Source: an uncultured Gammaproteobacteria bacterium (lineage in GTDB: Bacteria; Patescibacteriota; Microgenomatia; Daviesbacterales; UBA10151). Taken from it: DNA of 64,000 bases. The stretch lies in the NCBI GenBank assembly GCA_964636275.1, contig CAZWRN010000001.1, positions 107,724 to 171,723 on the forward strand. The letters are read 5' to 3'. This document shows, piece by piece, positions 3,902 through 60,165 of this stretch. A program made the position numbers and the translations under genes. Below the pieces are notes generated by a model that saw nothing but the letters and a program-made list of their open reading frames with translations, was not told where the DNA came from and made no database searches. The first letter of the stretch is position 1. Each line of letters starts with the position of its first letter.

Positions 3902-4522
3902 ATGCAAAAAGGATTTTCAGTATTGATGTTGGCTTTTCTTGTAGCAATACTGGCCTTGCTGGGCGGGGGGGGATATTATTTTCTTCATCAGCAAAAAATT
4001 GCTTCCATAAATTCATTTGCAGAGTGTAGCCAATATTTTACTGCTGTCGATAATGGGGATGAGCTTAATTGTGATACTCCCAGACAGCGCTTTTCTAAGC
4101 CTGATTTGGAGGAGGTGCCAACTTTACCAGAAGCTTCAATATCTGCCTCTGAGCGAAATCCTGGATGGGTAATGTTTTCAGGTCACACTGCTTATGGTGG
4201 TGAGAAAAAGTTTTCTATAGAATACCCCGGTGAGTGGTATCGGGAAGGTAGGGTTTTATATCCGGATGGTAAAGATGCAGAGTTTAGAGTTTGGCTTGGA
4301 AGTGGTGGGAGAGGAATGGCGGAGCATATAACATCACGGATGGTGAAAAAAAGTTTTAATGGAATTGAAGCGCGCTATTATTGGGATAAATCGCTAGGAT
4401 ACGCTTCCTTTAGCATTGAGAATATTGCCTATATTTTTGAATTTGTGGATATTCCTGAAGGGGAAAATGCTTATTATGAGAAAATTTTTATCAAAATGCT
4501 TAATACTTTTAAAAAAATCTAA
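3902..4522 (+). CDS. hypothetical exported protein (tandem paralog 3)
   Basis: N-terminal TM helix; 'KFSIEYPGEWY' motif; directly abuts paralog 2. Confidence 0.45.
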   Translation: MQKGFSVLMLAFLVAILALLGGGGYYFLHQQKIASINSFAECSQYFTAVDNGDELNCDTPRQRFSKPDLEEVPTLPEASISASERNPGWVMFSGHTAYGGEKKFSIEYPGEWYREGRVLYPDGKDAEFRVWLGSGGRGMAEHITSRMVKKSFNGIEARYYWDKSLGYASFSIENIAYIFEFVDIPEGENAYYEKIFIKMLNTFKKI

Positions 4523-4528
4523 TTAAAC

Positions 4529-5239
4529 TTAACTTCCTGGAGCTTTATCGATCAGATAAATATCAACGTATCTCGCACTCCAGCCGGCTGTTTTAGCATC
4601 GTCAAATCCTAGATCAATAATATTCCCTTTAATAGCCCCACCGGTGTCTCCGGCGACTGCTTTACCATAGCCAGGTACATAGACATTGGAGCGTAGTTTG
4701 ATGACACTGGGATCTACCGCTATCACGCCTTTGCCGGCACGCATGCCGATAGCAGTCCATTCGTTGCAGCCAGCACAGTGTTGGTCGTAGTGAGTGGCGT
4801 AGACACGCATTTTTTTCCAATAGCGGATTTCGCCTTCCGGTGTTTGGAGAGTTTTCCAGACTATTTTAGTGCCACGGCCGATGATTTCTGGGGTAGGTTT
4901 TTCAATTTCAGTTTTAACGGCCACTCGGTCAAATTCTTTACCGTCATAATAGGTAATTTTGATGGTTTTGATCTTTTTACCATCTTTACCTTCCTGAAGC
5001 GTCGTTTCGATGCCAGCTTCAGTTTCTGGATCATCTTTATACTCTTTTTCATATTCTATCTTGGCAGATTCCGTGGCATATTTCTCTTCAAATTTGGTTT
5101 CAGTCTTGACCGGTTGAGTGATCTCGAGTGTTTCTTTGGGATCTAAATTTGGGGGATCAAAAGTCCCGCTTTCAGCGGCAAAGGCGGTCATATTGAGTGT
5201 TAGTAGAGAACTAACAGCCATGTTGACAACTTTATCCAT
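4529..5239 (-). CDS. 3D-domain (MltA/RlpA-like) cell-wall-binding protein
   Basis: C-terminal 'YATHYDQHCAGCNEWTAIGMRAGKGVIAVDPSVIKL..VYVPGYGKAVAGDTGGAIKGNIIDLGFD' matches the 3D domain (three conserved Asp). Signal peptide at internal Met (MDKVVNMAVSSLLTL); the longer track ORF (to 5383) is probably an upstream overcall. Confidence 0.6.
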   Translation of the reverse strand: MDKVVNMAVSSLLTLNMTAFAAESGTFDPPNLDPKETLEITQPVKTETKFEEKYATESAKIEYEKEYKDDPETEAGIETTLQEGKDGKKIKTIKITYYDGKEFDRVAVKTEIEKPTPEIIGRGTKIVWKTLQTPEGEIRYWKKMRVYATHYDQHCAGCNEWTAIGMRAGKGVIAVDPSVIKLRSNVYVPGYGKAVAGDTGGAIKGNIIDLGFDDAKTAGWSARYVDIYLIDKAPGS

Positions 5240-5417: not shown

Positions 5418-7364
5418 CTAGCTATTAAGCCAGTCGTCGTCGTCTTTGAGTGCTCGCTTGTCGATATCATCATCAAAACTATCATTGTATTTATCAGACA
5501 GATAGGAATCTGAATCGCGGTAGCTCATATTTTGATCGATCAATCCAGTTGGAATTGATCCAAGAAATCGAGAGGGAATAGCACCGGATCGGGTACCAAA
5601 GTACAAACGGGAACGGGTGTAGGTCATGTAAAGTTTTTCTTTCGCTCGGGTGATCCCAACATAGGCGAGGCGACGTTCTTCTTCCATCTCGGTGGGATTG
5701 AGCATTGAGCGGGAGTGTGGGAAAAGTCCTTCTTCCATGCCAACTAAGAAAACGCTTGGAAACTCTAAACCTTTGGAGGCATGGATGGTCATGAGGGTGA
5801 CTGCTTGTTGCTGCTCTTTCAAAGCTAATCCAGGCATCTGGTTGTCTTGGATCAGGGCAACATTTTCCATAAACTCGACTAAGATAGGAAATTCCTCAGC
5901 TACAGAGCGAAGCTCTTTAACGTTTTCAATTCGCATCTTGCCTTGCTCAGAGCCATCATCCAGATAATTGAGATAGTCTGTCGCAGATAAGATGAGATCT
6001 AGAATGTCTCGGGTAGTCATTCGAGGTTCCTGCACATCATGTTCGGTTTTTTTAGTTTCGCCGAACTCGGATGTTTCGATCGTTTCAGGGATGATTCCAC
6101 TGGTAGCGGTGAGAAAGCGCTGCATCCGGCCTTTACCGATTTTTTCGATTCTTTTTTTAGCTACTGAATCACCAGGATTTTCAACCAGTCGGAGATAGGC
6201 CAAGATATCTTTAATCTCTTTTCTCTGATAAAATTGGACACCACCTACTAAACGATACGGTAATCCTGCTTTAAGGAAAATTTCCTCAATCGAACGAGAC
6301 TGAGCATTGGTTCGATAAAGTACAGCAAAGTCTGACAAAGGTTTGCCAGAATTTTTGACTTCATCTAAGACAAAAATTGCTTCCTCCACTTCATTGCCGG
6401 CTTGGTAAAGAGTGATTTTTGGACCAGATTTTTGTTCAGTCCAAAGTTTTAAAATAGGATGAGATTTATTTTCGGCAATCACAGCATGAGCGGCATCTAA
6501 AATAGTTTGAGTTGATCGATAATTTTGTTCAAGGTTAAAAACTTTGGCTTCGGGGTAATCTTTTTTGAAATTGACGATATTGCGAAAATCAGCTCCTCGG
6601 AAGCCATAAATAGCCTGTGAAGCATCTCCAACAACACAGAGGTTGCGGTATCTTTTGGCCAGTTGCTTGATCAAATTGTATTGAGCAGCATTGGTGTCTT
6701 GGTATTCATCAACCAAGATGTATTTAAACTGTTGTTGGTACTGGGCTAGTTTTTCTGGTTGAGTGTGGAAAAGCTGATTGGTCATCATCAGGAGATCATC
6801 AAAATCCAGAGCCTGGTTGCGACGTAAAATCTTTTGGTACTCGATGTAGACTTTAGCAACTGTTTCCTGGAAATAGCCTCGGGCGTACTGTGGATATTCC
6901 ATTTCAGAGATGAGTTCATTTTTAGCCGAGGAGATGGTATAGCGGATTGAGTTTGGATTAAACTTTTTCTGGTCAATTGCTAACACACTCATAGCCTCTT
7001 TGACGGCATCCTGGGCATCGCCTTCATCATAAATAGAGAAGCCTGGTTTGAGTCCGAGCAAATATCCTTCGCGGCGCAAGATTTTGGCACAGATTGAGTG
7101 GAAAGTTCCCATCAGAGGCTGAACAGAGGTTTTACCAATCAGGTGCAAAATACGCTCTTTCATTTCACCGGCAGCTTTGTTGGTAAAGGTAACTACCATA
7201 ATTTGATCTGCTGGTATTTTTTTTTCAGAGATCAAGTAGGCGACCCGGAAGGTTAAGACACGTGTTTTTCCGGAACCAGCACCAGCTAGAATAAGTTCAG
7301 GACCTTCAGTAGTTTTAGCAGCTTGTTGTTGGATCGGGTTTAGACCATCGAGTAAGTCGGGCAT
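5418..7364 (-). CDS. pcrA: UvrD/PcrA-type ATP-dependent DNA helicase
   Basis: Walker A 'AGAGSGKTRVLT', 'VDEYQDTN', 'GDASQAIYGFRGA', 'TIHASKGLEF' superfamily-1 helicase motifs. Likely start at MPDLLDGLNP. Confidence 0.85.
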   Translation of the reverse strand: MPDLLDGLNPIQQQAAKTTEGPELILAGAGSGKTRVLTFRVAYLISEKKIPADQIMVVTFTNKAAGEMKERILHLIGKTSVQPLMGTFHSICAKILRREGYLLGLKPGFSIYDEGDAQDAVKEAMSVLAIDQKKFNPNSIRYTISSAKNELISEMEYPQYARGYFQETVAKVYIEYQKILRRNQALDFDDLLMMTNQLFHTQPEKLAQYQQQFKYILVDEYQDTNAAQYNLIKQLAKRYRNLCVVGDASQAIYGFRGADFRNIVNFKKDYPEAKVFNLEQNYRSTQTILDAAHAVIAENKSHPILKLWTEQKSGPKITLYQAGNEVEEAIFVLDEVKNSGKPLSDFAVLYRTNAQSRSIEEIFLKAGLPYRLVGGVQFYQRKEIKDILAYLRLVENPGDSVAKKRIEKIGKGRMQRFLTATSGIIPETIETSEFGETKKTEHDVQEPRMTTRDILDLILSATDYLNYLDDGSEQGKMRIENVKELRSVAEEFPILVEFMENVALIQDNQMPGLALKEQQQAVTLMTIHASKGLEFPSVFLVGMEEGLFPHSRSMLNPTEMEEERRLAYVGITRAKEKLYMTYTRSRLYFGTRSGAIPSRFLGSIPTGLIDQNMSYRDSDSYLSDKYNDSFDDDIDKRALKDDDDWLNS

Positions 7365-7840: not shown

Positions 7841-7880
7841 TTAGTAAGTAGTCGGTAGGTTGTAGTAAGTAGGTATAGGT

Positions 7881-14705: not shown

Positions 14706-14822
14706 ACACGAAAACCTCCTTTGGAAAGAAGGCTATATTCATTGTAGATCTTTAAGGATAAAAAGGTAAGATGTTAAGCAGGCATTTAGTAAGTAGTAAG
14801 TAGGGTATGTGTATGGTATATA

Positions 14823-15593: not shown

Positions 15594-15643
15594 AACTTGT
15601 GAAGTGTACCATATAGCTAGGCTCAAGTGCAAGCTAAAGGATT

Positions 15644-15813
15644 AATAATCAAGTAACAAGATCCAAGTCTTCCAGAGAAAGTCAAAACTCAAAAGGCAAA
15701 AAGCAAAAATACAATTAAAAAGTGAGAAATTTTGACTTACGATTTGTATTTTTGACTTCTAACTTTTACTCTTTAATTTTTTTGTATCTTGGTGATTGTT
15801 TCTTGTATCTTTG
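15644..15813. repeat. palindromic intergenic element (CAAGATACAA/TTGTATCTTG family), copy between divergent rpsT and murJ
   Basis: Left arm TAATAATCAAGTAACAAGATCCAAG; right arm TTTGTATCTTGGTGATTGTTTCTTGTATCTTTG ends 28 nt before the murJ ATG. Confidence 0.55.
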
Positions 15814-17473: not shown

Positions 17474-17569
17474 GTTAGTAAGTAGGCTTTAGTAAGTAGT
17501 TTGTAGGTAAGGATAAACCGAATTCTAAACTAGATACAAAATACCAGATACTATATACTTTTTTATACT

Positions 17570-22325: not shown

Positions 22326-22429
22326 TTAATAATCAAGATACAATTTACCAAGATACAAATAAAATTTAGGTTATCAAATGATCAATTTTAAATTGTTTGT
22401 TTTTTGTATCTTGTTTCTTGATTATTATT
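22326..22429. repeat. palindromic intergenic element, copy upstream of the small ORF/hrcA region
   Basis: Left arm TTAATAATCAAGATACAATTTACCAAGATACAAA; core TCAAATGATCAATTTTAAATTG; right arm TTTTGTATCTTGTTTCTTGATTATTATT. Confidence 0.6.
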
Positions 22430-22552
22430 TTTGGGGTTGACAGATATTTTTCAAAAAAGGTATTGTAAGAACTCGGGCTTTTTGACAAAATTCTTACATA
22501 GAATCTAGGAAAAATGTTGTTATAACAATCTAAAAGGAGTATATTATAGTTA

Positions 22553-22901: not shown

Positions 22902-22938
22902 TTGACAGGTATTAGCACTCGCGGTATTATATTGCTAA
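22902..22938 (+). promoter_or_regulatory. sigma-70-like promoter overlapping a CIRCE-like HrcA operator upstream of hrcA
   Basis: TTGACA (22902-22907), 17 nt, TATTAT (22925-22930). 'TTAGCACTC-N9-TATTGCTAA' (22912-22938) matches CIRCE TTAGCACTC-N9-GAGTGCTAA, with the left half perfect and the right half 6/9. Confidence 0.6.
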
Positions 22939-22977
22939 TCCTTCGACTTCGCTCAGGATAAATCTTAAAGAAAATGC

Positions 22978-29629: not shown

Positions 29630-30674
29630 TGGTGTATTTTCCTTTGATTTTGTCGTAGGCGATAGTCCAAACAGAGGCTTTAAAAGCCTGAACAACAGCT
29701 CCAAGTATGACCATGATTGGAATTAAAATAGCTGTAGCAGCCACTGCTAGACCGATCAGCACGGGAGAGATCTCTTTGGTCATAAAGTACCCAATAAAGC
29801 TAGGAGCAATGGCGGCTATTAAAAGGAATACTGGTACCATGGTTACTATGATTGCAGCAAAGGTATTAACAATTCCTAATATCAAAGAGGCGCCCTTTTT
29901 CTTTTTAGCGATCTTAAATCCATTCCAAAAAGCTTGTTTGGCACTTAGATCAGAGATAGCAACTTCGCGATACCCCCAAATAATGCCTACTGAGATCAAT
30001 AAAGCGTAGTAAAGTAGTGGAATGAGTCCAAGAATCCCCAGAACCAATACAATCCCTTTAACTGTGAAATTACCTAAAATCATACCTAATGTAAATAAAA
30101 ATCCATAGATAAAAGCTATGGTAAAAACAATTAACCAAGGAATAATATCTAACCAGATAAAAGACTTAATATGTTTAAAACCAGATTCTGAAGCTTCTGC
30201 GATGGTGGTTTTACTGTGTTTGTAGGCGCTATAAACGCTTTCAATCAAGGAAGCGTGAGCCCAGGCTCGGTAAATGACACTAATCAGAATGCCCACTACA
30301 ATCAGAAATAAAATTTCTCCAGCTAGGATCATGTAATAATGTTTGGGGATTCGATTGAGTATTTCTATCCCCAGTAGCTGAAAAGGACCAATCGAATCTC
30401 CTAGTACCTGAGCCATTTCAGCACTTGAAGAAGCTTCTGGTATTCCTTGGTTGAATAGTTTTTGCAGGCTTTCTGAGTCTCCGCTGGATGATGAGTTGAA
30501 ATTGGAAGAACCAGCAGCGGTGGCTGCGACTGCTGCGCCAAAAATCCAGGTTACTTTATGATTTTTAATGATTTGCCAGGATTTTGAGTAGAGGTCAGAG
30601 ATTTCCCAGTCTTTTTGCGATGGTTTTTCGTCTACTAAGTGAAAATCAGTTTTTTCTTCTTTATCGTCAGACAT
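29619..30674 (-). CDS. polytopic membrane protein (unknown family)
   Basis: About 7 TM helices; acidic cytoplasmic N-terminus; no family motif recognised. Confidence 0.45.
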   Translation of the reverse strand: MSDDKEEKTDFHLVDEKPSQKDWEISDLYSKSWQIIKNHKVTWIFGAAVAATAAGSSNFNSSSSGDSESLQKLFNQGIPEASSSAEMAQVLGDSIGPFQLLGIEILNRIPKHYYMILAGEILFLIVVGILISVIYRAWAHASLIESVYSAYKHSKTTIAEASESGFKHIKSFIWLDIIPWLIVFTIAFIYGFLFTLGMILGNFTVKGIVLVLGILGLIPLLYYALLISVGIIWGYREVAISDLSAKQAFWNGFKIAKKKKGASLILGIVNTFAAIIVTMVPVFLLIAAIAPSFIGYFMTKEISPVLIGLAVAATAILIPIMVILGAVVQAFKASVWTIAYDKIKGKYTNES

Positions 30675-30676
30675 TT

Positions 30677-30776
30677 AATAATAATTTACCAAGAAACAAA
30701 TTCTAAGATACAAACAAAAAAAATTAATTAATTTTCAAATTTTTGGATGACTTGTTGCTTGTATCTTGATCATTAA
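30677..30776. repeat. palindromic intergenic element, copy between divergent membrane-protein and RDD genes
   Basis: Left arm TAATAATAATTTACCAAGAAACAAATTCTAAGATACAAACAA; right arm CTTGTTGCTTGTATCTTGATCATTAA. Confidence 0.55.
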
Positions 30777-30839
30777 CTTAAATGTAGCTGATGATTTGAT
30801 CTGTTGACAAGTAAGCAGTTTTTTGGTCAACTTAGATTA

Positions 30840-35382: not shown

Positions 35383-35454
35383 AATTGATCAAGTATCCAA
35401 GACACAAGTATCCAAAAAGGTTTGTATCTTGGAATTTGTTTCTTGATTATTAAT
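35383..35454. repeat. palindromic intergenic element (short-spacer copy) immediately 5' of the DHH-like gene
   Basis: TAATTGATCAAGTATCCAAGACACAAGTATCCAAAAAGG / TTTGTATCTTGGAATTTGTTTCTTGATTATTAAT; ATG 6 nt after the right arm. Confidence 0.6.
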
Positions 35455-38783: not shown

Positions 38784-41132
38784 ATGCAAAAAGTTATTAC
38801 AAAACAAATTGAAATAAACGGAAAGACTTTGAAACTGGAAACAGGGAAACTTGCTCTGCAAGCAGATGCAGCAGTTTTAGCAACTCAGGGAGAGACAGTT
38901 GTTTTGGCGACCGTTGCAACAAAGCCATTAAAAGAATCAATTGGTTATTTCCCCCTCAGTGTTGAATATGTTGAAAAACATTATGCTTCCGGAAGAATTA
39001 CTCCCCAGAAATTTATCAAAAGAGAAGGTCGTCCATCTGAAAAATCTATCTTGTCTGGTCGAGCAATTGATCGTTCTATCAGACCACTTTTTCCAAAAGA
39101 TTTTGAAAATGAAGTCCAAGTGATCATTACTGTTTTGTCTTATGACTCTATCAATGATCCGGTGATGTTGGCTATGACTGCTGCTTCAGCTGCTTTGTCG
39201 ATCTCGTCAGTACCATGGGCAGGTCCTTTGGCTGGTGTTCGAGTTGGTGAATACGAAGGTGAATTGGTGGTTGATCCAGAGATGTCTCATCTTCCAGACT
39301 TAACTTTGGAAGTTGTAGTAGCTTCATCCAAAGAATTAGTTCCAATGATTGAGGCCAAAGCTAAACAGGCCAAAGATGAGCGAGTATTTGAAGCTTTACA
39401 GCTGGCTCACAGTGCAGCTCAGCCAATCATTGATCTGATCAATGACTTTACTAAAGAAGCTGGTAAAGAGAAACAATCTTATAAATCCAACTTAGATGGT
39501 GTTGATGAAGAGCTTTTGAATACGGTGAAAAAAGATGTTGAAGAGCGCATCACCAAAGCGTTGTTTGATACCGAGCACACCTGGCATGATTCGACCGCTT
39601 CTCAGATCAAAGAAGAGGTTACTACCGAATACGCTGAACAGCTGACATCCAACCAGATCTCAACTGTTTTTGACAAGGTCGCTAAACAGATCATGAGTGA
39701 CACTATTTTGCACAAAGGCAAACGTGTTGATGGCAGAAAGATGGAAGAGATCCGCGAGATCACAATGGAAGTTGGTTTGCTTCCACGGGCTCATGGATCA
39801 GCTTTGTTCCAAAGAGGTGCTTCACAGTCTCTGTCTATTGCCACAGTTGGTCCACTTTCAGTGTCACAAACTTTGGAAGGTATGGAAGGCGAAGGCAAAA
39901 AGAGATTTATGCATTATTACAATATGAGTATCAATCCTTTTGCTTCAGGTGAAGTAAAAAGATTGGGTTCTCCAAACAGACGTGATATTGGTCATGGCAA
40001 TTTAGGTGAGATCTCTTTAGTTGGTGTACTTCCTTCAGAACAAGAGTTTCCTTATGCTATCCGAGTAGTTTCTGAGATTTTGGGAGCCAATGCTTCCACT
40101 TCACAGGCAGCTATTAGCGGTTCTACTTTGGCTATGTTAAATGCTGGTATTCCTATTGAACCAGTTGCAGGTATTGCTTTGGGTCTGATCACTGATCACA
40201 GCGATGATAAAAAATTCCAGGTGATCACCGACATGCAGGCAACTGAAGATTTTTATGGTGAGATGGATTTTAAAGTAGCTGGTACTGTCAATGGTATTAC
40301 AGGTATTCAGATGGATACCAAGCTGCATGGTCTGACCTTTGACATTATAAAAGAAGCTTTGCGACAGGGTAAACAGGCTCGTGAAGCAATATTGGCTAAA
40401 ATGCGGGAAGTGATGCCTCAGGCCAATGAACTGTCTAAATACGCTCCCAAGATTGAAATTACTCATATTCAGCCAGATCAGATCGGTATGTTGATTGGGC
40501 CAGGTGGTAAAAATATCAACGGTATTATTGCTGAGACCGGTGCTCAGATCGATATTGAAGATGATGGTACTGTGATGGTTTCTTCGATGGATAGTGTTGC
40601 AATCCAGGCTGCTTTGGACAAGATTACAGGTATGTTTAAAAAAGTGATGCCTGATGAAGAGTATGAAGGTAAAGTAGTTCGAATTGAACCATTTGGTGCA
40701 TTTGTCGAGATTTTGCCTGGTAAAGATGGATTGGTACATGTGTCTCAGATGGCTCCTGAACGAGTTGAAAGACCAGAAGATGTAGTTGAACTAGGTCAGG
40801 TTGTAAAGGTGAGAGTGGTCGATGTAGATAATATGGGTAAGATCTCTCTTTCAATGCTTTTTGGAGCTGATCGAAAGCCAGAATCTGAAAGACGCCCAAG
40901 TGGTGGAGACCGAGGTGGACGGGGAGGTTTTGGAGGCGATCGTGGAGGCAGTCGAGGTGGTTTTGGTGGTGGAAGTGACAGAGGCGGACGCGGCGGAGAT
41001 CGCGGTGGCTTTGGAGGTGGATCCAGATCTGGTGGCGGTATGAGACGTGGTTTTGGTGGTGGAAGTGACAGAGGCGGACGCGGCGGAGATCGCGGTAGCC
41101 GAGGTGGCAATCGAGGCGGATTTAGTAGATAA
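38784..41132 (+). CDS. pnp: polyribonucleotide nucleotidyltransferase (PNPase) with C-terminal RGG/GGDRGG repeat tail
   Basis: Two RNase PH domains, KH, S1 ('GKVVRIEPFGAFVEIL'); about 85-aa 'GGDRGGRGGFGG' tail encoded by a 44-nt tandem duplication (40962-41005 and 41047-41090). Confidence 0.95.
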   Translation: MQKVITKQIEINGKTLKLETGKLALQADAAVLATQGETVVLATVATKPLKESIGYFPLSVEYVEKHYASGRITPQKFIKREGRPSEKSILSGRAIDRSIRPLFPKDFENEVQVIITVLSYDSINDPVMLAMTAASAALSISSVPWAGPLAGVRVGEYEGELVVDPEMSHLPDLTLEVVVASSKELVPMIEAKAKQAKDERVFEALQLAHSAAQPIIDLINDFTKEAGKEKQSYKSNLDGVDEELLNTVKKDVEERITKALFDTEHTWHDSTASQIKEEVTTEYAEQLTSNQISTVFDKVAKQIMSDTILHKGKRVDGRKMEEIREITMEVGLLPRAHGSALFQRGASQSLSIATVGPLSVSQTLEGMEGEGKKRFMHYYNMSINPFASGEVKRLGSPNRRDIGHGNLGEISLVGVLPSEQEFPYAIRVVSEILGANASTSQAAISGSTLAMLNAGIPIEPVAGIALGLITDHSDDKKFQVITDMQATEDFYGEMDFKVAGTVNGITGIQMDTKLHGLTFDIIKEALRQGKQAREAILAKMREVMPQANELSKYAPKIEITHIQPDQIGMLIGPGGKNINGIIAETGAQIDIEDDGTVMVSSMDSVAIQAALDKITGMFKKVMPDEEYEGKVVRIEPFGAFVEILPGKDGLVHVSQMAPERVERPEDVVELGQVVKVRVVDVDNMGKISLSMLFGADRKPESERRPSGGDRGGRGGFGGDRGGSRGGFGGGSDRGGRGGDRGGFGGGSRSGGGMRRGFGGGSDRGGRGGDRGSRGGNRGGFSR

Positions 41133-41139
41133 TTGAGAC

Positions 41140-41817
41140 GTGCAAAAATTCAGACAGCTTTTTTTCCATAAAACTTTTCAACTTTTAATTATATTGGTGG
41201 TTCTGACTAGTATTTTAGTACTGACTACTATTTTGAGACCCGATGTTTTTCAAGAGATGTTTAGTAAAATAAATGTTTTTGCTTCAGATATTGCTTCTGG
41301 TAAATTGTGGAAAGAAAAAAGCCAAGCCAGGGTATATTTAGCGGATGGATCTTTGAAAGTAAACTTTCAGATTAGTACAGTCGATCAGTCAGCGGTAAAA
41401 GCCTTCAATCAAAAATTGGGAGTTTCAGATGAATATTTACAGGGAGTAGCGATTAAAATCGATAGTGAATCGCAGCAAAAACTGCAATCATTTTTACCTG
41501 TCAATTTAACCTTGGAAATTGAAGATGATCGGATTATCTTCCAAAATGGCATAATTGCTGGGTTTGCTTCATCACTAGTGACAAAAACAATGGAGTATGC
41601 AACTGGTTCGTCAAAGCTGAAAATTTCCCATTACTCACCGACCGAGTTCTTGCTTGATATCACAGATCCAGAGCCATTATTGCAGGAAGCAACAGCCTCG
41701 GGAAAGTTTGTTTTATCGGATAAACTATTACCGCTCTATCCAATATTAGAGAGAGTGAGTACAATAGAAATGAGTGTAAATGGTAAAAGTGTTAGTGGAG
41801 AAGTGAAGTTGAAATAA
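41140..41817 (+). CDS. hypothetical N-anchored protein
   Basis: N-terminal TM; 4-nt gap after pnp suggests co-transcription. Confidence 0.4.
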   Translation: MQKFRQLFFHKTFQLLIILVVLTSILVLTTILRPDVFQEMFSKINVFASDIASGKLWKEKSQARVYLADGSLKVNFQISTVDQSAVKAFNQKLGVSDEYLQGVAIKIDSESQQKLQSFLPVNLTLEIEDDRIIFQNGIIAGFASSLVTKTMEYATGSSKLKISHYSPTEFLLDITDPEPLLQEATASGKFVLSDKLLPLYPILERVSTIEMSVNGKSVSGEVKLK

Positions 41818-41858
41818 TGTCAAATACTACCAATGTCAAATGACAAATGCCCAATCAT

Positions 41859-41886
41859 TAGACATTAGACATTAGACATTAGACAT
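41859..41886. repeat. (TAGACAT)x4 heptanucleotide tandem repeat upstream of the Lon-like ATPase gene
   Basis: Four perfect units, 10 nt before ATG 41897; a candidate slipped-strand (phase-variable) promoter/leader spacer. Confidence 0.7.
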
Positions 41887-41896
41887 TTAATACATT

Positions 41897-43055: not shown

Positions 43056-43146
43056 GATTAGGAAGTAAGATACAATAACCAAGAAACAAGTTATCCAATT
43101 AAGGAATATAGTTTAACTATTTGCATCTTGATTATTGTTTTCTTGG
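43056..43146. repeat. palindromic intergenic element, copy 5' of rnj
   Basis: Left arm GATTAGGAAGTAAGATACAATAACCAAGAAACAAG; right arm TTTGCATCTTGATTATTGTTTTCTTGG. Confidence 0.6.
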
Positions 43147-43157
43147 AAGACTTATTT

Positions 43158-44996
43158 ATGAAATCATTTAAACCACAACAACAGACTAATACGCAAAACG
43201 TAACACGCAATACGAGTACTCAAAAACCAACCATATACCATAATCCGCAGCCAGCGGGGGGAAATACTGTGCAGCAATCAGCTATCGGCTCTCAGCCATC
43301 AGCAAAAAACAGTAATCAGAATCAGCAGAAGAATCAACCAATGGGTGATACAGTGCGACTGATTCCATTGGGTGGTGTAGGCGATGTGACTAAAAACATG
43401 TATGTATATGAGTATAAAAATGACATCGTCATCGTCGACTGTGGTGTATCTTTTCCGGAAGAGAGTATGCCGGGGGTCGATTTGGTAATTCCGGATATTA
43501 GTTATTTGCGAGATAAAAAATCTAAAATCCGTGGTATTGTGATCACTCACGGGCACGATGATCATTATGGAGCGTTGCCATATATCTGGCCAGAGCTGGA
43601 TGTGCCCATTTACTCTCAAAAACTGACCTGTGGACTGATTCGTTCTAAATTCAGTGAGCACAAATTGCCAAAAGACAAGATCAAGGAGATGAAAATTACT
43701 GATACTGTTCAGTTGGGCGCCTTTAAAATTTCGGTATATCAGGTTTCTCATTCGGTCCCAGATTCAACAGGAGTGGTTTTGGAGACGCCAGTAGGCACTA
43801 TTATCCATCAGGCTGACTTTAAAATAGATTGGACACCGGTAAATGGACAGGTCCCCGATGTGGGTCGGGTAGCTGAGTTGGGACGAAAAGGGGTACTGAT
43901 GATGACTATTGATTGTCTTCGCAGTGAAAAGCCTGGTTATACTATTTCCGAAAAAACCATTCAGCCAACATTTGAAAAAATTGAAGCTGAGACCAGGGGG
44001 CAGTTGATCATTACCCTGATTACCTCCAATATCACCCGGATTCAGCAGGCTATAAATGTGGCTGTTCAGTCGGGTAGAAAAGTGGCATTTGTCGGTAGAA
44101 GCATGGAAAACAATGTTCAGGTGGCCAGAGATTTGGGCTATCTGCATGTTCCACCTGGAGTAGTGATCAATCAGGAAGAGGTTAGGCGATTTGCCCCAGA
44201 AAAACTAATGATTATTATTGCGGGTTCTTTGGGTCAGCCAGGTTCAGCCTTATCGCGGGCTGCTCATGGTGATCACAAAAATATTCGAATTAGTCCCACT
44301 GATACAGTTGTTTTTAGTGCCGATCCGATGCCGTCAGCTGAAATGTCTCAGGGGATGATAATTGATGCTTTAGCCAGAATTGGTTGTAAAGTGTATTATT
44401 CACGATTAACCGAAGATTTGCATGTTTCAGGTCACGCAGCCCAGGAAGAGTTGAAGCTGATGATCAATCTGGCTAAACCAAAAAACCTGATGCCTATGGG
44501 TGGTAATTTCCGTCACATGAGGGCATTTTCCGATATGGTCAAAGAGATGGGGTATAAAGACAACCAGATCTTTGCGTTAAAAGAGGTACAGGCAATTGAG
44601 ATCGGTCGTGATAAAGCCCGAATCGGTGAAAGAATCCGGGAAGAAAATGTCTATGTGGATGGGTTAGGGGTTGGAGATGTAGGGCAAATTATTTTGCGAG
44701 ACAGGCAGTTGATGAGTGAAGAGGGCGTGGTGGTGGTGATCGCTCGGGTTGATATGAAAACTGGCAAGTTGGAAGGTGAGCCGGATGTGATGTCCCGAGG
44801 ATTTGTCTTTGGTGAAAGTGGTCAGGATATTACTGGTGCTGCTAAAGAGATAGTTAAAAGTATCTTCTCAGGTCTTCATAGCGGACCGACAGATTTTAAA
44901 TATATTCGCCATGAAGTGGAAGACAATTTAGGCAAGTTTTTCTACGAAGAAACCAAACGCAAACCGTTGATTTTGACAACGGTTGTAGAGATTTAA
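43158..44996 (+). CDS. rnj: ribonuclease J with Q/N-rich N-terminal extension
   Basis: Metallo-beta-lactamase 'ITHGHDDHYGALPY', beta-CASP and C-terminal domain. ATG 43158 (MKSFKPQQ) preferred; the upstream TTG lies in an intergenic repeat. Confidence 0.9.
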   Translation: MKSFKPQQQTNTQNVTRNTSTQKPTIYHNPQPAGGNTVQQSAIGSQPSAKNSNQNQQKNQPMGDTVRLIPLGGVGDVTKNMYVYEYKNDIVIVDCGVSFPEESMPGVDLVIPDISYLRDKKSKIRGIVITHGHDDHYGALPYIWPELDVPIYSQKLTCGLIRSKFSEHKLPKDKIKEMKITDTVQLGAFKISVYQVSHSVPDSTGVVLETPVGTIIHQADFKIDWTPVNGQVPDVGRVAELGRKGVLMMTIDCLRSEKPGYTISEKTIQPTFEKIEAETRGQLIITLITSNITRIQQAINVAVQSGRKVAFVGRSMENNVQVARDLGYLHVPPGVVINQEEVRRFAPEKLMIIIAGSLGQPGSALSRAAHGDHKNIRISPTDTVVFSADPMPSAEMSQGMIIDALARIGCKVYYSRLTEDLHVSGHAAQEELKLMINLAKPKNLMPMGGNFRHMRAFSDMVKEMGYKDNQIFALKEVQAIEIGRDKARIGERIREENVYVDGLGVGDVGQIILRDRQLMSEEGVVVVIARVDMKTGKLEGEPDVMSRGFVFGESGQDITGAAKEIVKSIFSGLHSGPTDFKYIRHEVEDNLGKFFYEETKRKPLILTTVVEI

Positions 44997-45075
44997 GCCC
45001 CCATGGCATTAATGCATAGCTGGGATTTATTGAAAATTGTATTTTGTACTTTTTTATAAAAGTACAAAAAATCGT

Positions 45076-45205
45076 CACGCAGGAAAGTCGGCCTAAATAT
45101 GTTCAGTCGCTTAACGGGGGAATGTCTGCCCCCTCCGGCAAAGCCGGACCTCCCCCTGTTGCGCTCCCTCTCAAATTTTTAACGGCCTTTGTTTCAATGC
45201 GTGAC
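45076..45205. ncRNA. candidate structured RNA: about 130-nt GC-rich (about 58% GC) element closed by an 8-bp terminal helix; identity unknown
   Basis: GTCACGCA (45076-45083) pairs with TGCGTGAC (45198-45205). Internal hairpins GGGGG-AATGTCTG-CCCCC and TCCGGC-AAA-GCCGGA plus a competing GGGGG/CCCCC pairing. Sits between rnj and the peptidase gene. Strand not determined. Confidence 0.3.
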
Positions 45206-45258
45206 TTTCTTTAATGTTTATTGTTGAATTGTGTATTTGTTAAAGGTAAAGTAAAAAA

Positions 45259-46290
45259 ATGGAAAATAATTCACTAACCGCTATAAGAGGTGTTAAAGTT
45301 GGTCATTCTACGCATCCGGATAAACTTACTGGGTGCACTTTTATTTCTTTTGATGAAGAATATCCTGTGGCGTACAAATCATATGGGGGTGCGCCCGGCA
45401 CATATGCTACTGAAAATCTGAATAATGGAATGTCGTTTGCTTTGAGAAATGGATTGTTCATAGCGGGTGGAAGTTTGAATGGTCTTACTTCCGCTGCTTC
45501 AATTATTGATAGATTAGTTCAAAAAAAATCTGGATTAAAAGTGGGAAATACTTGGTTACCCGCAATTAGCGGAGCTATTGTTTGGGACTTAGGCGTTGAA
45601 ATTTCTCAATATGATTTCAATTATGGAAAAGAAGCAGTTGATAATTTATCTAATGAACCTGTTAAAAATGGCAATGTGGGAGCAGGTACCGGTACTACTG
45701 TGGGTAAGTTTCAATATTTAGAAAAAGGCATCAGTAGTGGAGCGATGAAATCTGGTGTCGGTTCAGCCAGGGTTGACCTAGGAAATGGGATTATGATTTG
45801 CGCCTTATCCGTCGTTAATGCATTGGGCAACATTGTAAATAGGGATGGTACTGTTCTGGCGGGTAATAGAAATGAAGAAGGTGGATTTACTGATTTTGAT
45901 GAAGTCGGTAATTTTGTTACAACAAAAAAATCAAATACTACTATATCTGTCGTAGGAATAAATGTTGATTTAAAAAATAGAGAAGCATATGAAAGAATCG
46001 CTCACTTTGGTGCGCAAGGTCAGATTAGAGCTATAAATCCCGTCCAAACTTCAATTGATGGAGATACGGTTTTTGTTTTTTCTTCAAAAGAGATTAGTAA
46101 CCCGCTTAATTCTTTTGGTAAATACTGGCAAACTCCTGCTTGGCCAGAATTTACCATTGACATGATTGGTTACGTAGCATCTAAAGCAGTACAACTAAGT
46201 ATTTACGATGCCTGTACTTCTGCAGAAACAATTGATTTTAAAGGAGCATACAAAGGAATTATTCCCTCGGCTGCAGATTATAGAAAATGA
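45259..46290 (+). CDS. P1/S58 (DmpA/ArgJ-fold) family peptidase
   Basis: 'GVKVGHSTHPDKLTGCTFISF' N-terminal pattern and Gly-rich core typical of the DmpA L-aminopeptidase family. Confidence 0.6.
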   Translation: MENNSLTAIRGVKVGHSTHPDKLTGCTFISFDEEYPVAYKSYGGAPGTYATENLNNGMSFALRNGLFIAGGSLNGLTSAASIIDRLVQKKSGLKVGNTWLPAISGAIVWDLGVEISQYDFNYGKEAVDNLSNEPVKNGNVGAGTGTTVGKFQYLEKGISSGAMKSGVGSARVDLGNGIMICALSVVNALGNIVNRDGTVLAGNRNEEGGFTDFDEVGNFVTTKKSNTTISVVGINVDLKNREAYERIAHFGAQGQIRAINPVQTSIDGDTVFVFSSKEISNPLNSFGKYWQTPAWPEFTIDMIGYVASKAVQLSIYDACTSAETIDFKGAYKGIIPSAADYRK

Positions 46291-46306: not shown

Positions 46307-46780
46307 ATGGTTAAAGCACTTCTGTTCGATTTCTCCCGCGTTTTGTTATTTCCCAAAGGTTCAGATCCGGTTGAGTCTCTCAACGGGAAATATCGTGAGC
46401 TGCTGGAGCAGGGGGAGTTTGATTTTTTTGAGCATTACCGGCTCAATGAAGAGTTGATGGACTTTATTTATAAGCTCCAAGATGACTACGAACTGTTTCT
46501 TTTTACCAGCGAAACTATCCAGGAAGCACCGGAGTTGAAAGAAGAACTAAGTGTATTCAAGCGAATTTTTTCTGGAACCAGGATGAATCTGGATAAAAAA
46601 GAGCCGGTAGCTTATGAAACAATCGCTCGTGAGATTGGGGCTGATATCGAAGAGATTGTTTTCATTGATGATTCGATGCTCAATCTGACAGCGGCTGCTC
46701 AGGCTGGGATGCAGGTGATCCACTATCAAAACAATGAACAGCTGTTTGATACTTTTAAAATCCTGGCTATCGTCCCCTAA
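46307..46780 (+). CDS. HAD-superfamily hydrolase
   Basis: Motif I 'LLFDFSRVL' (DxD variant) and C-terminal 'FIDDS' motif IV; start at MVKALLFDF. Confidence 0.55.
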   Translation: MVKALLFDFSRVLLFPKGSDPVESLNGKYRELLEQGEFDFFEHYRLNEELMDFIYKLQDDYELFLFTSETIQEAPELKEELSVFKRIFSGTRMNLDKKEPVAYETIAREIGADIEEIVFIDDSMLNLTAAAQAGMQVIHYQNNEQLFDTFKILAIVP

Positions 46781-51801: not shown

Positions 51802-51895
51802 AGAATTTCTAAGTACTCTAATTGCTAATTACTAAACAAATCCCAAAAATCAAATTTCTAATATTCATTATTTAGATATTAGAAATTAGTAATTC
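51802..51895. repeat. second dispersed intergenic repeat family (AGAATTTCTAAGTACTCTAATTGCTAAT ... TTAGAAATTAG), copy 1
   Basis: 27-nt near-identical match to 60034-60060 plus a degenerate TTAGAAA tail; lies in the 5' region of the minus-strand ATPase-wHTH gene. Confidence 0.55.
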
Positions 51896-51901
51896 GAACT
51901 T

Positions 51902-52222
51902 TTAATTCTTTTCACCCCAGTCTGCGAGGTCTTGAAAGATCTTTTTTAAGGTGAGACCTTTAGGGGTCAGGGTGTATTCGACATGTAAAGGGATTTCGGT
52001 AAAAACTTTTCTTGAGACAATTCCATCATTTTCCAATTCTTGTAGCCTTTGGGATAAAGTTTTTGGACTGATTGTATCCAGGGCTCGTTGTAGCTCACCA
52101 AATCTTTTTTTGCCTTCAAACAAATTGTGTAATATTAGCATGGTCCATTTACTGCCAATTATTTTAAGTGTTTTGGCTACAGCACAGTCATTATCTGTAA
52201 ATCCAGTATTATTTTTCTGCAT
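51902..52222 (-). CDS. HxlR-family (MarR-like) transcriptional regulator
   Basis: 'CAVAKTLKIIGSKWTMLILHNLFEGKKRFGELQRAL..ISPKTLSQRLQELENDGIV' HxlR signature. Confidence 0.7.
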   Translation of the reverse strand: MQKNNTGFTDNDCAVAKTLKIIGSKWTMLILHNLFEGKKRFGELQRALDTISPKTLSQRLQELENDGIVSRKVFTEIPLHVEYTLTPKGLTLKKIFQDLADWGEKN

Positions 52223-54252: not shown

Positions 54253-54293
54253 TAGTTTATTAAGTAGACTATAGTAAGTAGGCGGTAGGTAAA

Positions 54294-57020: not shown

Positions 57021-59234
57021 ATGAAATTTCTTGATTCAATTTTAAACTCATTACCAATTCCAAAAAAGAATGAACCTGTAGAGTACTACTTTGGTTTGAA
57101 TATCAGTCCGAGTATGGTGTATGGCTGTGTCTGGGGGATCCGAAGCGGTAAGCTGCATGTACTAAGCTCTTCAAAAACAGTCTATGAATCGGAAAAAGAC
57201 CTGATTGAAGCTGCCAATTATGTTTTGGATGAAGCATTGGCCGATTTTCAGCCTGAACCAGCTAAGATTTTATTTGGTGTGCCGGATGACTGGTTGGCAG
57301 ATGATGATCTGAAGCCGGAATACCTTAAAACATTGAAACAGCTGGTTAAAGAGCTAGATGTAGTCCCGTTGGCTTATGTGGCATCAACCAATGCAATTGC
57401 CCATCTGATAGCGAGGCAGACCGGTGTGCCTTTGACGGCAATATTAGTTCATATTTCTGATCCGGTGACAGTGTCGGTGGTGAAAACAGGCAAAGTTCAG
57501 GGTACTAAGCAGGTTAAAAAGAGTGATCATCTGGCCAAAGATATTGAAAAAGCTTTGATGAATTTTACCGAAGTTGAGGTGATGCCATCTAAGATTATTA
57601 TTTATGGTGATGATAAAGTTGGCAAATACAAAGAAGATCTGACATCTTATGCTTGGATGACACAGTTGCCTTTTTTGCATTTGCCAAAAATTGAGGATTT
57701 GGACCCAGGTATTGTAGTTCAGGCAGTTGCTTACGCCGGAGCTTCCGAGATAGATCCAGAAGTGCATGTCTTATCCCAAAATATTGTTGAGGATGTTAAA
57801 TCAGCTGGTAAAACCAAACCATTACATCTAGATATGGAATCGCATCATGGGCGACATCAAACAAAAGATAAACATGGTCTGGATAATGTGGGTTTTGTGA
57901 CAGGAGATATTGCTGATAAAAATCAGGAGATGCTAATGGAAGATGAAGAGTTGGGCGGAGGAGAAGATGTTGATGTTTATGGTCGGGCTGTCCCAATGCG
58001 TCACAACTCACATTCAGTTAAAGAGTCACATCTATCAGAAGTCCCAGCGTTGTCTGCAGGCTCTAAAATGGGTATGCCGGTCGGTATTTTAGGGCTTTTG
58101 GGTGGAAGTACCAAGCTTTTGATTATCCCGCTTATTTTACTGGTACTGGTTGGGGTTTATCTATATTTCCAAAAGGCAAAAGTGACGGTATTTGTGGACC
58201 TTAAAACAGTGGAGAATACTACCACTGTCACAGCCGACCCTAAAGTGAGTACGGTTGATGAACCAAATAAGATTATTCCTGGTGAAATGGTGTCTGCTGA
58301 GGTTTCAGGAAATGATAAAGGTCAGGCAACAGGTAAAAAACAGGTTGGTGATGCTGCTAAAGGAAAGGTGATTATTTACAATGCGACGGATAAATCATTG
58401 GTAATTGATAAAGGAACGACTCTCACCAATGATAAAGGTCTCAAGTTTACATTGGATGGAAGCGTTCAAGTTGCATCAAAATCGGCTAGTGCGGCTGATC
58501 CCCCGACCAAATCGAGTTTAGTGGACGCAACAGCTGCGGTAATTGGCCCGGATAGTAATATTCCGGCTGGGGGAGATCTGAGTGTGGGTGGGTTTAATAA
58601 GTCTGATGTTGTAGCCAAAGTCGATACTGCATTTAGTGGCGGTGTCTCCAAAGATGTGACTGTGGTCACGGCAGATGATCAAAATAGGCTGTTGGCCAAA
58701 GTATTGGCTGATCTGAAAAAACAGGCAAAAGATGAACTTCAATCAAAAATGACTGGAGATGTCAAAGTATTGGAAGAAGCGTTGAGCGACACTGTTATTA
58801 AAAAGACCTTTTCAAAGAATGTCGGGGATCAAGCTAGTGATTTTACCTTGAACCTGACTGTGAAATTGCTGGGTACATCATATAAAGATAGTGATCTGAA
58901 ATCAATTGTATCCAAATTGGTTCAGGTAGATGTGCCAGCTGGGTATGATCTTGATCTGAGTCAAACTGAAACTCAAGCCGATGTGTCTAAAGTTGAAAAA
59001 GATGGTAGATTGGTTTTTTCGGCTAAATTTAAAGCCAAGCTGATGCCCAAGTTTGATTTAGAACAACTTAAAAAAGATATTGTGTTTAAAAGTGCTTCTC
59101 AGGCAGCGGATAGGTTGAAGCAAATTGAAAATGTTATTGGTTCAGATATTGAATTTAAACCTGATTTACCAGGACCGTTGGAGAGATTACCAATACTGAC
59201 AAAAAATATAGATTTAGAAGTTACAGCTAAATAA
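57021..59234 (+). CDS. bitopic membrane protein: FtsA/PilM-like actin-fold N-terminal cytoplasmic domain, TM, about 360-aa beta-rich extracellular domain
   Basis: N-terminal 'YYFGLNISPSMVYGCVWGIRSGKLHVL' resembles the PilM/FtsA 'GIDIGsssik' phosphate-1 region; TM at about aa 352-384. Confidence 0.45.
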   Translation: MKFLDSILNSLPIPKKNEPVEYYFGLNISPSMVYGCVWGIRSGKLHVLSSSKTVYESEKDLIEAANYVLDEALADFQPEPAKILFGVPDDWLADDDLKPEYLKTLKQLVKELDVVPLAYVASTNAIAHLIARQTGVPLTAILVHISDPVTVSVVKTGKVQGTKQVKKSDHLAKDIEKALMNFTEVEVMPSKIIIYGDDKVGKYKEDLTSYAWMTQLPFLHLPKIEDLDPGIVVQAVAYAGASEIDPEVHVLSQNIVEDVKSAGKTKPLHLDMESHHGRHQTKDKHGLDNVGFVTGDIADKNQEMLMEDEELGGGEDVDVYGRAVPMRHNSHSVKESHLSEVPALSAGSKMGMPVGILGLLGGSTKLLIIPLILLVLVGVYLYFQKAKVTVFVDLKTVENTTTVTADPKVSTVDEPNKIIPGEMVSAEVSGNDKGQATGKKQVGDAAKGKVIIYNATDKSLVIDKGTTLTNDKGLKFTLDGSVQVASKSASAADPPTKSSLVDATAAVIGPDSNIPAGGDLSVGGFNKSDVVAKVDTAFSGGVSKDVTVVTADDQNRLLAKVLADLKKQAKDELQSKMTGDVKVLEEALSDTVIKKTFSKNVGDQASDFTLNLTVKLLGTSYKDSDLKSIVSKLVQVDVPAGYDLDLSQTETQADVSKVEKDGRLVFSAKFKAKLMPKFDLEQLKKDIVFKSASQAADRLKQIENVIGSDIEFKPDLPGPLERLPILTKNIDLEVTAK

Positions 59235-59339
59235 TAATAATCAAGATACAAGTAACAAGTATCCAAATAATTAGAAAATTGATCAATTTTTAAATTGGTT
59301 TTTGTTTGTTTCTTGGGATTTGTTTCTTGGATATTAATT
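59233..59339. repeat. palindromic intergenic element, copy 5' of the sortase gene
   Basis: Left arm TAATAATAATCAAGATACAAGTAACAAGTATCCAAA; core AAAATTGATCAATTTTTAAATTGG; right arm TTTGTTTGTTTCTTGGGATTTGTTTCTTGGATATTAATT. Confidence 0.6.
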
Positions 59340-59383
59340 TGTATTTCCTCTAACGGTAGACGGAGCCCACGAGGGGGATTCTT

Positions 59384-60030: not shown

Positions 60031-60162
60031 TTAGAATTTCTAAGTACTCTAATTCCTAATATCTAAATAAGATCCAAATCTCAAGACGCTAAATACTTTT
60101 AGGATAATTTAGTTAGAAATTAGAAATTAGAAATTAGAAATTAGAAATTAGAAATTAGAAAT
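60031..60162. repeat. second dispersed intergenic repeat family, copy 2, ending in (TTAGAAA)x7 heptanucleotide tandem repeat (60113-60161)
   Basis: TTAGAATTTCTAAGTACTCTAATTCCTAAT, then seven perfect TTAGAAA units ending 4 nt before the ruvX ATG. Confidence 0.7.
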
Positions 60163-60165
60163 TTT

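Follow-up and report, generated by a model that had tools for sequence, protein, structure and literature searches.

A GC-rich long hairpin element 3′ of rnj in a Candidatus Daviesbacteria sub-clade, a candidate for a structured RNA family

The 64-kb stretch of DNA analyzed here, referred to as the window, comes from an uncultured bacterium of the Patescibacteriota and carries, 3′ of the RNase J gene rnj, a 132-nt element rich in G and C (GC) that folds into a long hairpin. A scan based on rnj assigned the window to a Candidatus Daviesbacteria genome (Candidate Phyla Radiation, Microgenomates) that had been assembled from a metagenome. A first-pass annotation, made from the sequence alone, had placed a candidate structured RNA downstream of rnj, and Pfam matches confirm that the gene 5′ of the element encodes RNase J. 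Five genes around the element were checked by Pfam, i.e., those for an AAA ATPase, RNase J, a peptidase of the S58 family, a HAD hydrolase, and FtsK. The order 3′ of rnj is leader, palindrome, GC-rich element, S58 gene, GTGTATAAT, HAD gene, and ftsK. The features of the locus are as follows.

43158..44996, + strand: rnj, encoding RNase J (Pfam domains RNase_J_b_CASP, RNase_J_C, Lactamase_B, and RMMBL)
44997..45041, + strand: leader of 45 nt 3′ of the rnj stop codon, with a small predicted hairpin CCCA..GCAUUAAUGC..UGGG, then a U-rich stretch
45042..45069, no strand assigned: palindrome TTTTGTACTTTT-TTAT-AAAAGTACAAAA, perfect, AT-rich, and of GTAC type, with a 12-bp stem and a 4-nt loop
45074..45205, + strand: GC-rich long hairpin element of 132 nt, defined by its fold and by its copies L090, P0256, P0258, and P0259
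45206..45219, + strand: U-rich tail UUUCUUUAAUGUUU after the closing helix, the start of a flank specific to the window
45220..45232, + strand: anchor ATTGTTGAATTGT, a 13-mer unique in the window, orthologous to the very start of the rnj 3′ flank in L001, L091, and L092
45259..46290, + strand: gene of the Peptidase S58/P1 family (Pfam), between the element and the HAD hydrolase gene and separate from the element

The element has a GC content of 54.5% over positions 45074-45205, below the ~58% first given for it, and reaches 61% in its best 100-nt stretch, compared to 39.7% for the whole window, where it is the sole non-coding GC-rich island. The sequence features that had drawn attention to it are all present: the complementary octamers GTCACGCA (45074-45081) and TGCGTGAC (45198-45205), the apical hairpin CCGGC-AAA-GCCGG, and the G5 and C5 runs. 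An 8-nt inverted repeat at such a distance is not significant alone, since by our estimate tens of them are expected in 64 kb. One G5 run (45116-45120) lies opposite two C5 runs (45129-45133 and 45152-45156), and the alternative G5/C5 pairing, which would be switch-like, is compatible with the homologues, in which both C runs are retained. The + strand folds at -45.2 kcal/mol (z = -3.1) and the - strand at -50.2 kcal/mol (z = -3.7), values that none of 200 dinucleotide shuffles equaled in either case, and folding the element as DNA gave z = -3.1. On the + strand, the predicted fold has the following parts.

45074..45081, + strand: 5′ strand of helix H1, GUCACGCA, pairing with 45198-45205 (UGCGUGAC)
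within 45083..45093, + strand: 5′ strand of H2, GAAA, pairing with 45192-45195
45090-45093, + strand: 5′ strand of H3, GGCC, pairing with 45184-45187
45095..45101, + strand: 5′ strand of H4, AAAUAUG, pairing with CAAAUUU at 45172-45178
45102..45108, + strand: 5′ half of a 7x7 internal loop, with its 3′ half at 45165-45171; variable, with forced changes
45109..45121, + strand: 5′ strand of H5 (GC, UAAC, GGGGGA), pairing with 45151-45164 and including a U45112-G45161 wobble
45122..45133, + strand: asymmetric bulge AUGUCUGCCCCC of 12 nt, holding the first C5 run, an alternative partner of the G5 run
45134..45148, + strand: apical hairpin UCCGGC-AAA-GCCGGA, whose stem is compatible in all copies

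L090 is the Joint Genome Institute (JGI) contig that encodes P0250, a member of the 90% cluster of rnj proteins. Its rnj is 96.4% identical to that of the window and is followed by the leader, palindrome, and element, with 3 substitutions in 202 nt (98.5% identical). The homology ends after ...GTTTCAAT at 45197 (break 45197/45198), and different DNA with a reversed NAGPA gene follows. Further copies were sought by a protein search, using the spurious 56-amino-acid (56-aa) open reading frame (ORF) of the window as the query against 1.8 billion proteins and a library of representatives. The search recovered P0255, the ORF of L090 itself, along with P0256 (33 aa, 1,115-nt JGI contig, E = 1e-7) and, from the representatives library, P0258 (65 aa, 17.4-kb JGI contig, E = 1.6e-4) and P0259 (82 aa, 548-nt ENA contig, E = 6.7e-4). 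P0256, P0258, and P0259 are known as translated spurious ORFs, and their nucleotides were obtained by back-translation. P0256 keeps the 3′ closing octamer, read as M-R-D or ATG CGT GAC, and diverges right after GAC at 45205; the flank that starts with the U-rich tail in the window differs in both P0256 and L090. P0258 and P0259 each align to the window in two different reading frames and are therefore nucleotide homologues with 1-nt indels rather than proteins; in P0259 the frame shift stems from a 1-nt insertion in the apical loop. In every copy with a known 5′ side the element has the orientation of rnj and is preceded by the GTAC hairpin.

Other searches added little. The element gave nothing in blastn and nhmmer searches against 80 related loci, and a single-sequence covariance model run over the window and 75 loci, and then over 11 more, found only the element itself and L090. 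Neither the remaining 63.9 kb of the window nor ~620 kb of related loci yielded a second copy, the element being single-copy in the window and in the 75 related loci. Phage and plasmid collections gave no match or a 35-nt chance match. An exact 28-mer scan of the JGI metagenome_contigs collection found nothing, a weak negative because the collection is without L090, which contains the 28-mer, and an rnj-based scan of the same collection gave nothing above 53% identity. Negatives from metagenome_contigs do not cover all JGI metagenomes (L090 belongs to JGI 3300046786). In a viral contig collection the exact 22-mer and P0258-based scans were empty, and two degenerate patterns gave four stretches, none matching the covariance model. 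GC-rich islands 3′ of rnj in L006, L052, and L080 proved to be coding or unrelated.

The perfect 12-bp palindrome at 45042-45069 is present as the first-pass annotation described it. The pattern GTACTTTT..AAAAGTAC has a single occurrence in the window, 100 shuffles produced none, and among 105 loci the GTAC palindrome was found only in L086 and L090, directly 3′ of rnj. Judging from the translations, it precedes the element in P0258, where FVLFWKSTKN corresponds to TTTGTACTTTTTTGGAAAAGTACAAAAAAT, and in P0259, where KVPKI reads as in L090. The leader at 44997-45041 is identical in L090, its sole sharer, and is not found in L001, L086, or L091-L093. L086 carries the palindrome without the GC-rich element. 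On this comparison, the palindrome is a separate feature that predates the GC-rich element and is confined, within this sub-clade, to the 3′ flank of rnj.

To compare the stems, peptide-only copies were back-translated to IUPAC nucleotides and laid on the minimum-free-energy structure of the window, and the inner helices were read as 28 pairs between 45090 and 45187. None of these pairs is impossible in P0258 or P0259; a shift of the 3′ partners by 1-3 nt makes 5-9 pairs impossible. Forced changes fall at 19 of the 75 readable positions of P0258 and at 12 of 71 in P0259. Among the pairs readable on both sides, no forced change is one-sided, and 4 pairs in P0258 and 3 in P0259 change on both sides; random placing of the same number of changes gives expectations of 1.0 (P = 0.0056) and 0.5 (P = 0.0050), respectively. 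The H3 pair 45091/45186 goes from G-C to A-U in P0259, with both bases determined. Double-sided changes in H4 lie at 45098/45175, 45100/45173, and 45101/45172 in P0258 and/or P0259, and for the latter two only standard pairs are possible in P0258. The H5 pair 45115/45158 changes from C-G to R-Y in P0258. A45099, which is mismatched in H4 of the window, is replaced in L090 (A45099U) to give a U-A pair. The closing helix of P0258 has another sequence that is still complementary (AAYTTYGCNG/CNGCNAARYT, with 6 determined pairs); no definite closing helix could be made out in P0259. No copy has a forced change in the C run of the bulge at 45122-45133, and the 7x7 loop appears from the back-translations to be largely pairable in P0258 and P0259. 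The U45112-G45161 wobble is retained in the window, L090, and P0259 and would be an A-C mismatch on the - strand; the + strand, which is that of rnj, is therefore favored.

The first-pass annotation had pointed to compensatory base changes as a check on the fold, and such changes keep the inner helices in the back-translated copies, with H1 replaced complementarily in P0258. Maintenance of the stems by paired changes appears to lend moderate support to a conserved structure. Two further comparisons were not used as evidence. Random back-translations of P0258 and P0259 folded no better than shuffled-peptide controls, which is uninformative because a third of the positions are randomized. Between the window and L090, four-fold sites of rnj differ at 25 of 254 and the intergenic block at 3 of 202 (P = 1.6e-6); the divergence is mosaic, 500 nt in mid-gene being identical and the final 500 nt of rnj carrying only 10 differences, so that a local neutral rate of 2-3% is possible, and we did not count the slow evolution as constraint.

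The spacer 3′ of rnj is highly variable among relatives. In ~40 Daviesbacteria loci the usual order is AAA-ATPase, rnj, and ftsK, with a rnj-ftsK spacer of mostly ~35-250 nt. In genomes whose rnj is 84-96% identical to that of the window, the spacer between rnj and the HAD gene or ftsK holds the S58 gene, NAGPA, 23S_rRNA_IVP, tRNA-Asp with PolX, a reversed ORF, or nothing. The 3′ flanks of rnj without the element are the following.

L002 (rnj 85% identical): HAD hydrolase gene, then ftsK
L086 and L087 (93%): GTAC hairpin, then GTGTTATAAT and the HAD gene, as seen in L086; L087 ends inside the hairpin
L088 (84%): reversed ORF, then the HAD gene
L001, L092, and L093 (93-95%): AATTGTTGAATTGT..., with reversed 23S_rRNA_IVP genes called in L092 and L093
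L091 (93.5%): same AATTGTTGAATTGT start, then tRNA-Asp and PolX

The flank sequence of L001 is that of L092. Because ATTGTTGAATTGT immediately adjoins the stop codon of rnj in L001, L091, and L092, the block 44997-45219 of the window is an indel relative to them. Three copies of the element have three different 3′ flanks, each starting at or within the 3′ closing strand. On this evidence the S58 gene, missing from all rnj relatives compared, was inserted between the element and the HAD gene in a lineage-specific manner. Its nearest homologues (78, 74, and 72% identical, the closest with a Levybacteria annotation) have unrelated upstream spacers of ~55 nt in which the element is not found. The possibility that the element is the 5′ edge of an inserted S58 cassette was dropped, since L090 has the element without the S58 gene.

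The element exists, recurs, and is non-coding, and its stems are kept by paired changes. We tentatively read it, with a confidence somewhat short of even, as a small, undescribed, lineage-restricted hairpin family located 3′ of rnj in one Candidatus Daviesbacteria sub-clade that would function as a structured RNA of the + strand. The structured RNA proposed by the first-pass annotation gains from the lack of an Rfam match, from the recurrence, and from the double-sided changes; it loses from the absence of the element in many relatives and from the truncation in L090.

Several observations weigh against this reading. Conservation among relatives, whose lack had been named beforehand as a point that would count against the proposal, is found only in part: copies exist, but the element is not 3′ of rnj in L001, L086, L087, or L091-L093, six loci whose rnj is 93-95% identical, and it is also missing in ~40 more distant Daviesbacteria loci. 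Absence from close relatives means that it is dispensable. The site itself is, as far as the compared genomes tell, a hypervariable hot spot of recombination and accessory genes. In L090 the 3′ strand of H1 is missing, and shuffled sequences fold as well as this copy does (z = -1.2). Of the two strands, the - strand has the slightly better fold, and thermodynamics does not discriminate between them. The covariation comes from back-translated, partly ambiguous nucleotides with undetermined third-codon positions, read against a reference structure derived from the window itself. Only two diverged copies contribute, they share two of the double changes, and several changes lie in the A/U-rich H4. 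Locally, the 3′-terminal 500-1000 nt of rnj diverge at a rate of only 1-2%. The 7x7 loop of the window, at a place where P0258 and P0259 look paired, hints at decay. Finally, no canonical promoter or terminator was called at the element in a scan of 44800-45400; a -35 TTGAAA/-10 TATAAA pair has a 19-nt spacer, and its -10 is lost in P0258.

We infer the transcription, strand, and role of the element as follows. The + strand RNA would arise by read-through from rnj as a structured 3′ untranslated region (UTR) or, alternatively, by transcription from a weak promoter overlapping the palindrome. It would fold into a long rod formed by the closing helix H1 and by H2 to H5, with the asymmetric C-rich bulge and the apical CCGGC hairpin. 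Such a stable 3′ end module could block 3′ exonucleases and/or terminate or insulate transcription, and the RNA might accumulate as a stable small RNA. A bolder extension, which we regard as unlikely, would make it a new class of regulatory RNA of this Candidate Phyla Radiation (CPR) lineage tied to RNase J, as a decoy, a substrate, or a 3′-UTR small RNA modulating RNase J or its own mRNA, with its 3′ end as a preferred integration point. In other bacteria, tRNA and tmRNA genes serve as integration points for accessory genes.

Non-coding RNAs of the CPR/Patescibacteria are almost unexplored, because cultures are lacking and existing models miss the RNAs of these bacteria. If the reading as a structured RNA is true, a family linked to rnj would be an entry point to RNA-level regulation or mRNA-end protection in reduced genomes. 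The locus also exemplifies an accessory-gene hot spot, between rnj and ftsK, with boundaries at a hairpin element, and is thereby of interest for gene acquisition in tiny CPR genomes. Its importance is limited, the clade being narrow and the element evidently dispensable.

The main rival, which we hold to be possible though rather unlikely, is a quasi-palindrome acting at the DNA level, selfish or recombination-prone and akin to a miniature inverted-repeat transposable element (MITE), a repetitive extragenic palindromic (REP) sequence, or an attachment site, that marks or causes the hot spot and whose arms are kept by template-switch or hairpin-directed repair. The patchy occurrence among very close relatives and the hypervariable rnj-HAD spacer would fit such an element, as would the position of the breaks, since the three 3′ flanks begin at the 3′ closing strand (L090 at 45197/45198, P0256 after 45205) and the indel 44997-45219 falls exactly between the rnj stop codon and ATTGTTGAATTGT. 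Both strands fold about equally, and so does the DNA. Other observations count against it. No second copy turned up in the window or in the ~620 kb of related sequence, terminal inverted repeats are lacking at the ends of the indel block 44997-45219, and its junctions show an ambiguous TTTAA on both sides at most, with no clear target-site duplication. Neither a transposase nor an integrase is encoded among the five neighboring genes, which were the only genes checked for an integrase. The same GTAC hairpin lies before every copy with a known 5′ side, which suggests one orthologous locus and not transposition. The conserved asymmetric 12-nt C-rich bulge and the G-U wobble are likewise unexpected for a pure DNA palindrome.

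A reading as an integron attC site was also considered and fails on its defining boxes. An attC site carries the boxes R'' (RYYYAAC) and R' (GTTRRRY) at either end of its palindrome, and recombination crosses over at G|TT. Like an attC site, the element is an imperfect palindrome beside variable accessory genes, with homology that ends at or inside its 3′ arm. GCTTAAC at 45109 fits R'', but GTTGCGC at 45158 has a C at a purine position. The element further differs from attC in that its breakpoints (45197/45198 and ~45205) lie away from the GTT of the R'-like box (45158) and in that its helices reach 35-45 nt beyond the R''/R'-like boxes. No similar site that would indicate a cassette array was found elsewhere in the window.

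An improbable explanation is that foreign GC-rich DNA left the element behind as a functionless relic, or that it is a remnant in decay, with a hairpin and an apparent conservation that reflect nothing more than shared recent ancestry. The 98.5% identity between the window and L090 is no more than a local divergence of ~1-2% predicts, the L090 copy is truncated, and most relatives are without the element. Against this, P0258 and P0259 have diverged at no less than 25% and no less than 17% of readable positions, respectively, and yet keep all inner pairs with both sides changing. The different but complementary closing helix of P0258 and the poorer folding of the shuffles also argue against it.

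Membership in a known RNA family that has diverged, such as signal recognition particle (SRP) RNA, 6S RNA, a riboswitch, or RT-13, or a role as the 5′ leader or riboswitch of the S58 gene, is very improbable. The first-pass annotation had found no counterpart among SRP RNA, tRNA, tmRNA, and common riboswitch cores, and the covariance models agree: none of 4227 Rfam models (Rfam 15) matched the 64 kb at its gathering score, and a permissive search of 451 nt (44900-45350, E up to 10) gave no SRP, 6S, or riboswitch match. ARAGORN found no tRNA or tmRNA, ruling these out. The element does resemble 4.5S and 6S RNA superficially, in being a GC-rich rod in a range of ~100-180 nt with paired 5′ and 3′ ends that stands out from its genome, and its - strand contains AGGUCCGG, which we take to match E. 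coli 4.5S RNA. It differs from both in being missing from close relatives, where essential RNAs at an orthologous locus would persist unless relocated. The small SRP RNA is recognized by a helix 8 with a GNRA cap and by conserved loop motifs, both symmetric and asymmetric (GGAA loop, AGCA). The apical loop of the element is AAA (4 nt, NCGN, in P0259) rather than a GNRA tetraloop, there is no GGAAGCA motif, and no covariance-model match to the small SRP RNA (RF00169) was obtained. 6S RNA is a rod of ~150-200 nt with a large conserved central bubble; the element, at 132 nt, falls short of the length of known 6S RNAs, the one internal loop of any size (7x7) varies and can close in the homologues P0258 and P0259, and a covariance-model match is again lacking.

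The best local Rfam match, to RT-13 (RF03017), lies on the - strand and scores 19.6 bits (E = 0.28), with the cut-off at 69.1. The likeness to this Weinberg-type motif lies in a G5/C5 stem around a CCGG hairpin; the score is below gathering, no reverse transcriptase lies nearby, and the second hairpin of RT-13 is missing, so the element is not a member. In a broader sense it resembles Weinberg-type RNA motifs from metagenomes, being a GC-rich island with compensatory changes in an AT-rich uncultured bacterium. A leader or riboswitch of the S58 gene is contradicted by the unrelated spacers of the S58 homologues and by L090, where the S58 gene is absent.

The element also shares features with 3′-UTR and REP-type stabilizers, since it lies directly 3′ of a gene on the same strand and is a stable GC-rich hairpin with a U-rich tract in the window. 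Intrinsic terminators are short GC-rich stem-loops (~5-14 bp) directly before a U tract. In the window, UUUCUUU does come after the closing helix, but a structured domain of 116 nt would be the "loop", and the 3′ flanks of P0256 and P0258 are not clearly U-rich. Terminator and REP hairpins are much shorter and simpler than the element, in which five helices are combined with the apical hairpin and the conserved asymmetric bulge rich in C, and which is single-copy in the DNA available.

A small protein, encoded by the 27-codon ORF at 45099-45182 or by a 56-codon ORF with a TTG start at 45044-45214, has next to no probability and was rejected on sequence grounds: open frames exist, and ORFs are annotated across three other copies (P0255, P0256, and P0258; "hypothetical protein" in JGI), but the copies read in different frames with 1-nt indels, none of the 3 substitutions separating L090 from the window is synonymous in the long frame (Q to P, Y to F, and S to P), and there is no evident ribosome-binding site. 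The 27-codon micro-ORF noted at the outset has its ATG at 45099-45101 and not at 45103, is not conserved, the copies shifting frame, and has TTG in place of this ATG in L090.

The rnj gene has an alternative TTG start at 43128 that gives the 622-aa product on record (P0254 is this 622-aa version). The N-terminus of RNase J (43158-43400) is a low-complexity extension of ~70 residues with a high content of Q, N, T, and S, and most of the differences between the rnj genes of the window and L090, including indels, cluster there, with 59 aligned differences within 43196-43395. In L053, the rnj match is in two parts (4001-5152 and 6446-7021) ~1.3 kb apart, which suggests an insertion (a mobile element, intron, or intein) or an assembly problem.

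Elsewhere in the window, short tandem or dispersed heptamer-like repeats, such as TTAGAAA/TTAGACA runs, TAGTAAG/TAGGT runs, and CAAGATAC/CAAGAAAC motifs, occur in many intergenic regions, often just upstream of genes; the CAAGATAC/CAAGAAAC motifs are also found as inverted pairs. The intergenic repeats look like a genome-wide family of signals. The heptamer-like repeats lie at the following sites.

41858-41896, 51872-51910, and 60113-60165: heptamer-like repeats
7841-7875, 14785-14804, 17475-17509, and 54257-54291: heptamer-like repeats
15643-15668, 22327-22432, 30680-30775, 35415-35454, and 59230-59340: heptamer-like repeats

A GC-rich motif of ~27 nt, CCTGAGCG(A/T)AGTCGAAGG..., occurs once in the window, in an intergenic region (22936-22962, - strand), and twice in L090, 3′ of the truncated element (2172-2198 and ~2220-2237); it may be a small dispersed repeat. 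The stretch 30010-30803 is 794 nt without an ORF of at least 70 codons, and no tRNA genes are present in the whole 64 kb. The strongest GC island of the window (66%, 40852-41146) is coding and forms the 3′ end of a 782-aa ORF (38784-41132), where a 68-nt direct repeat (40942-41009 and 41032-41099) encodes a Gly/Arg-rich tail. Few genes of the window have a recognizable Shine-Dalgarno sequence, for which reason the idea that the C-rich motifs of the element are anti-Shine-Dalgarno sequences was dropped. Several genes have a -10-like TATAAT near the start codon, an example being GTGTATAAT, which sits 8 nt before the ATG of the HAD gene at 46307.

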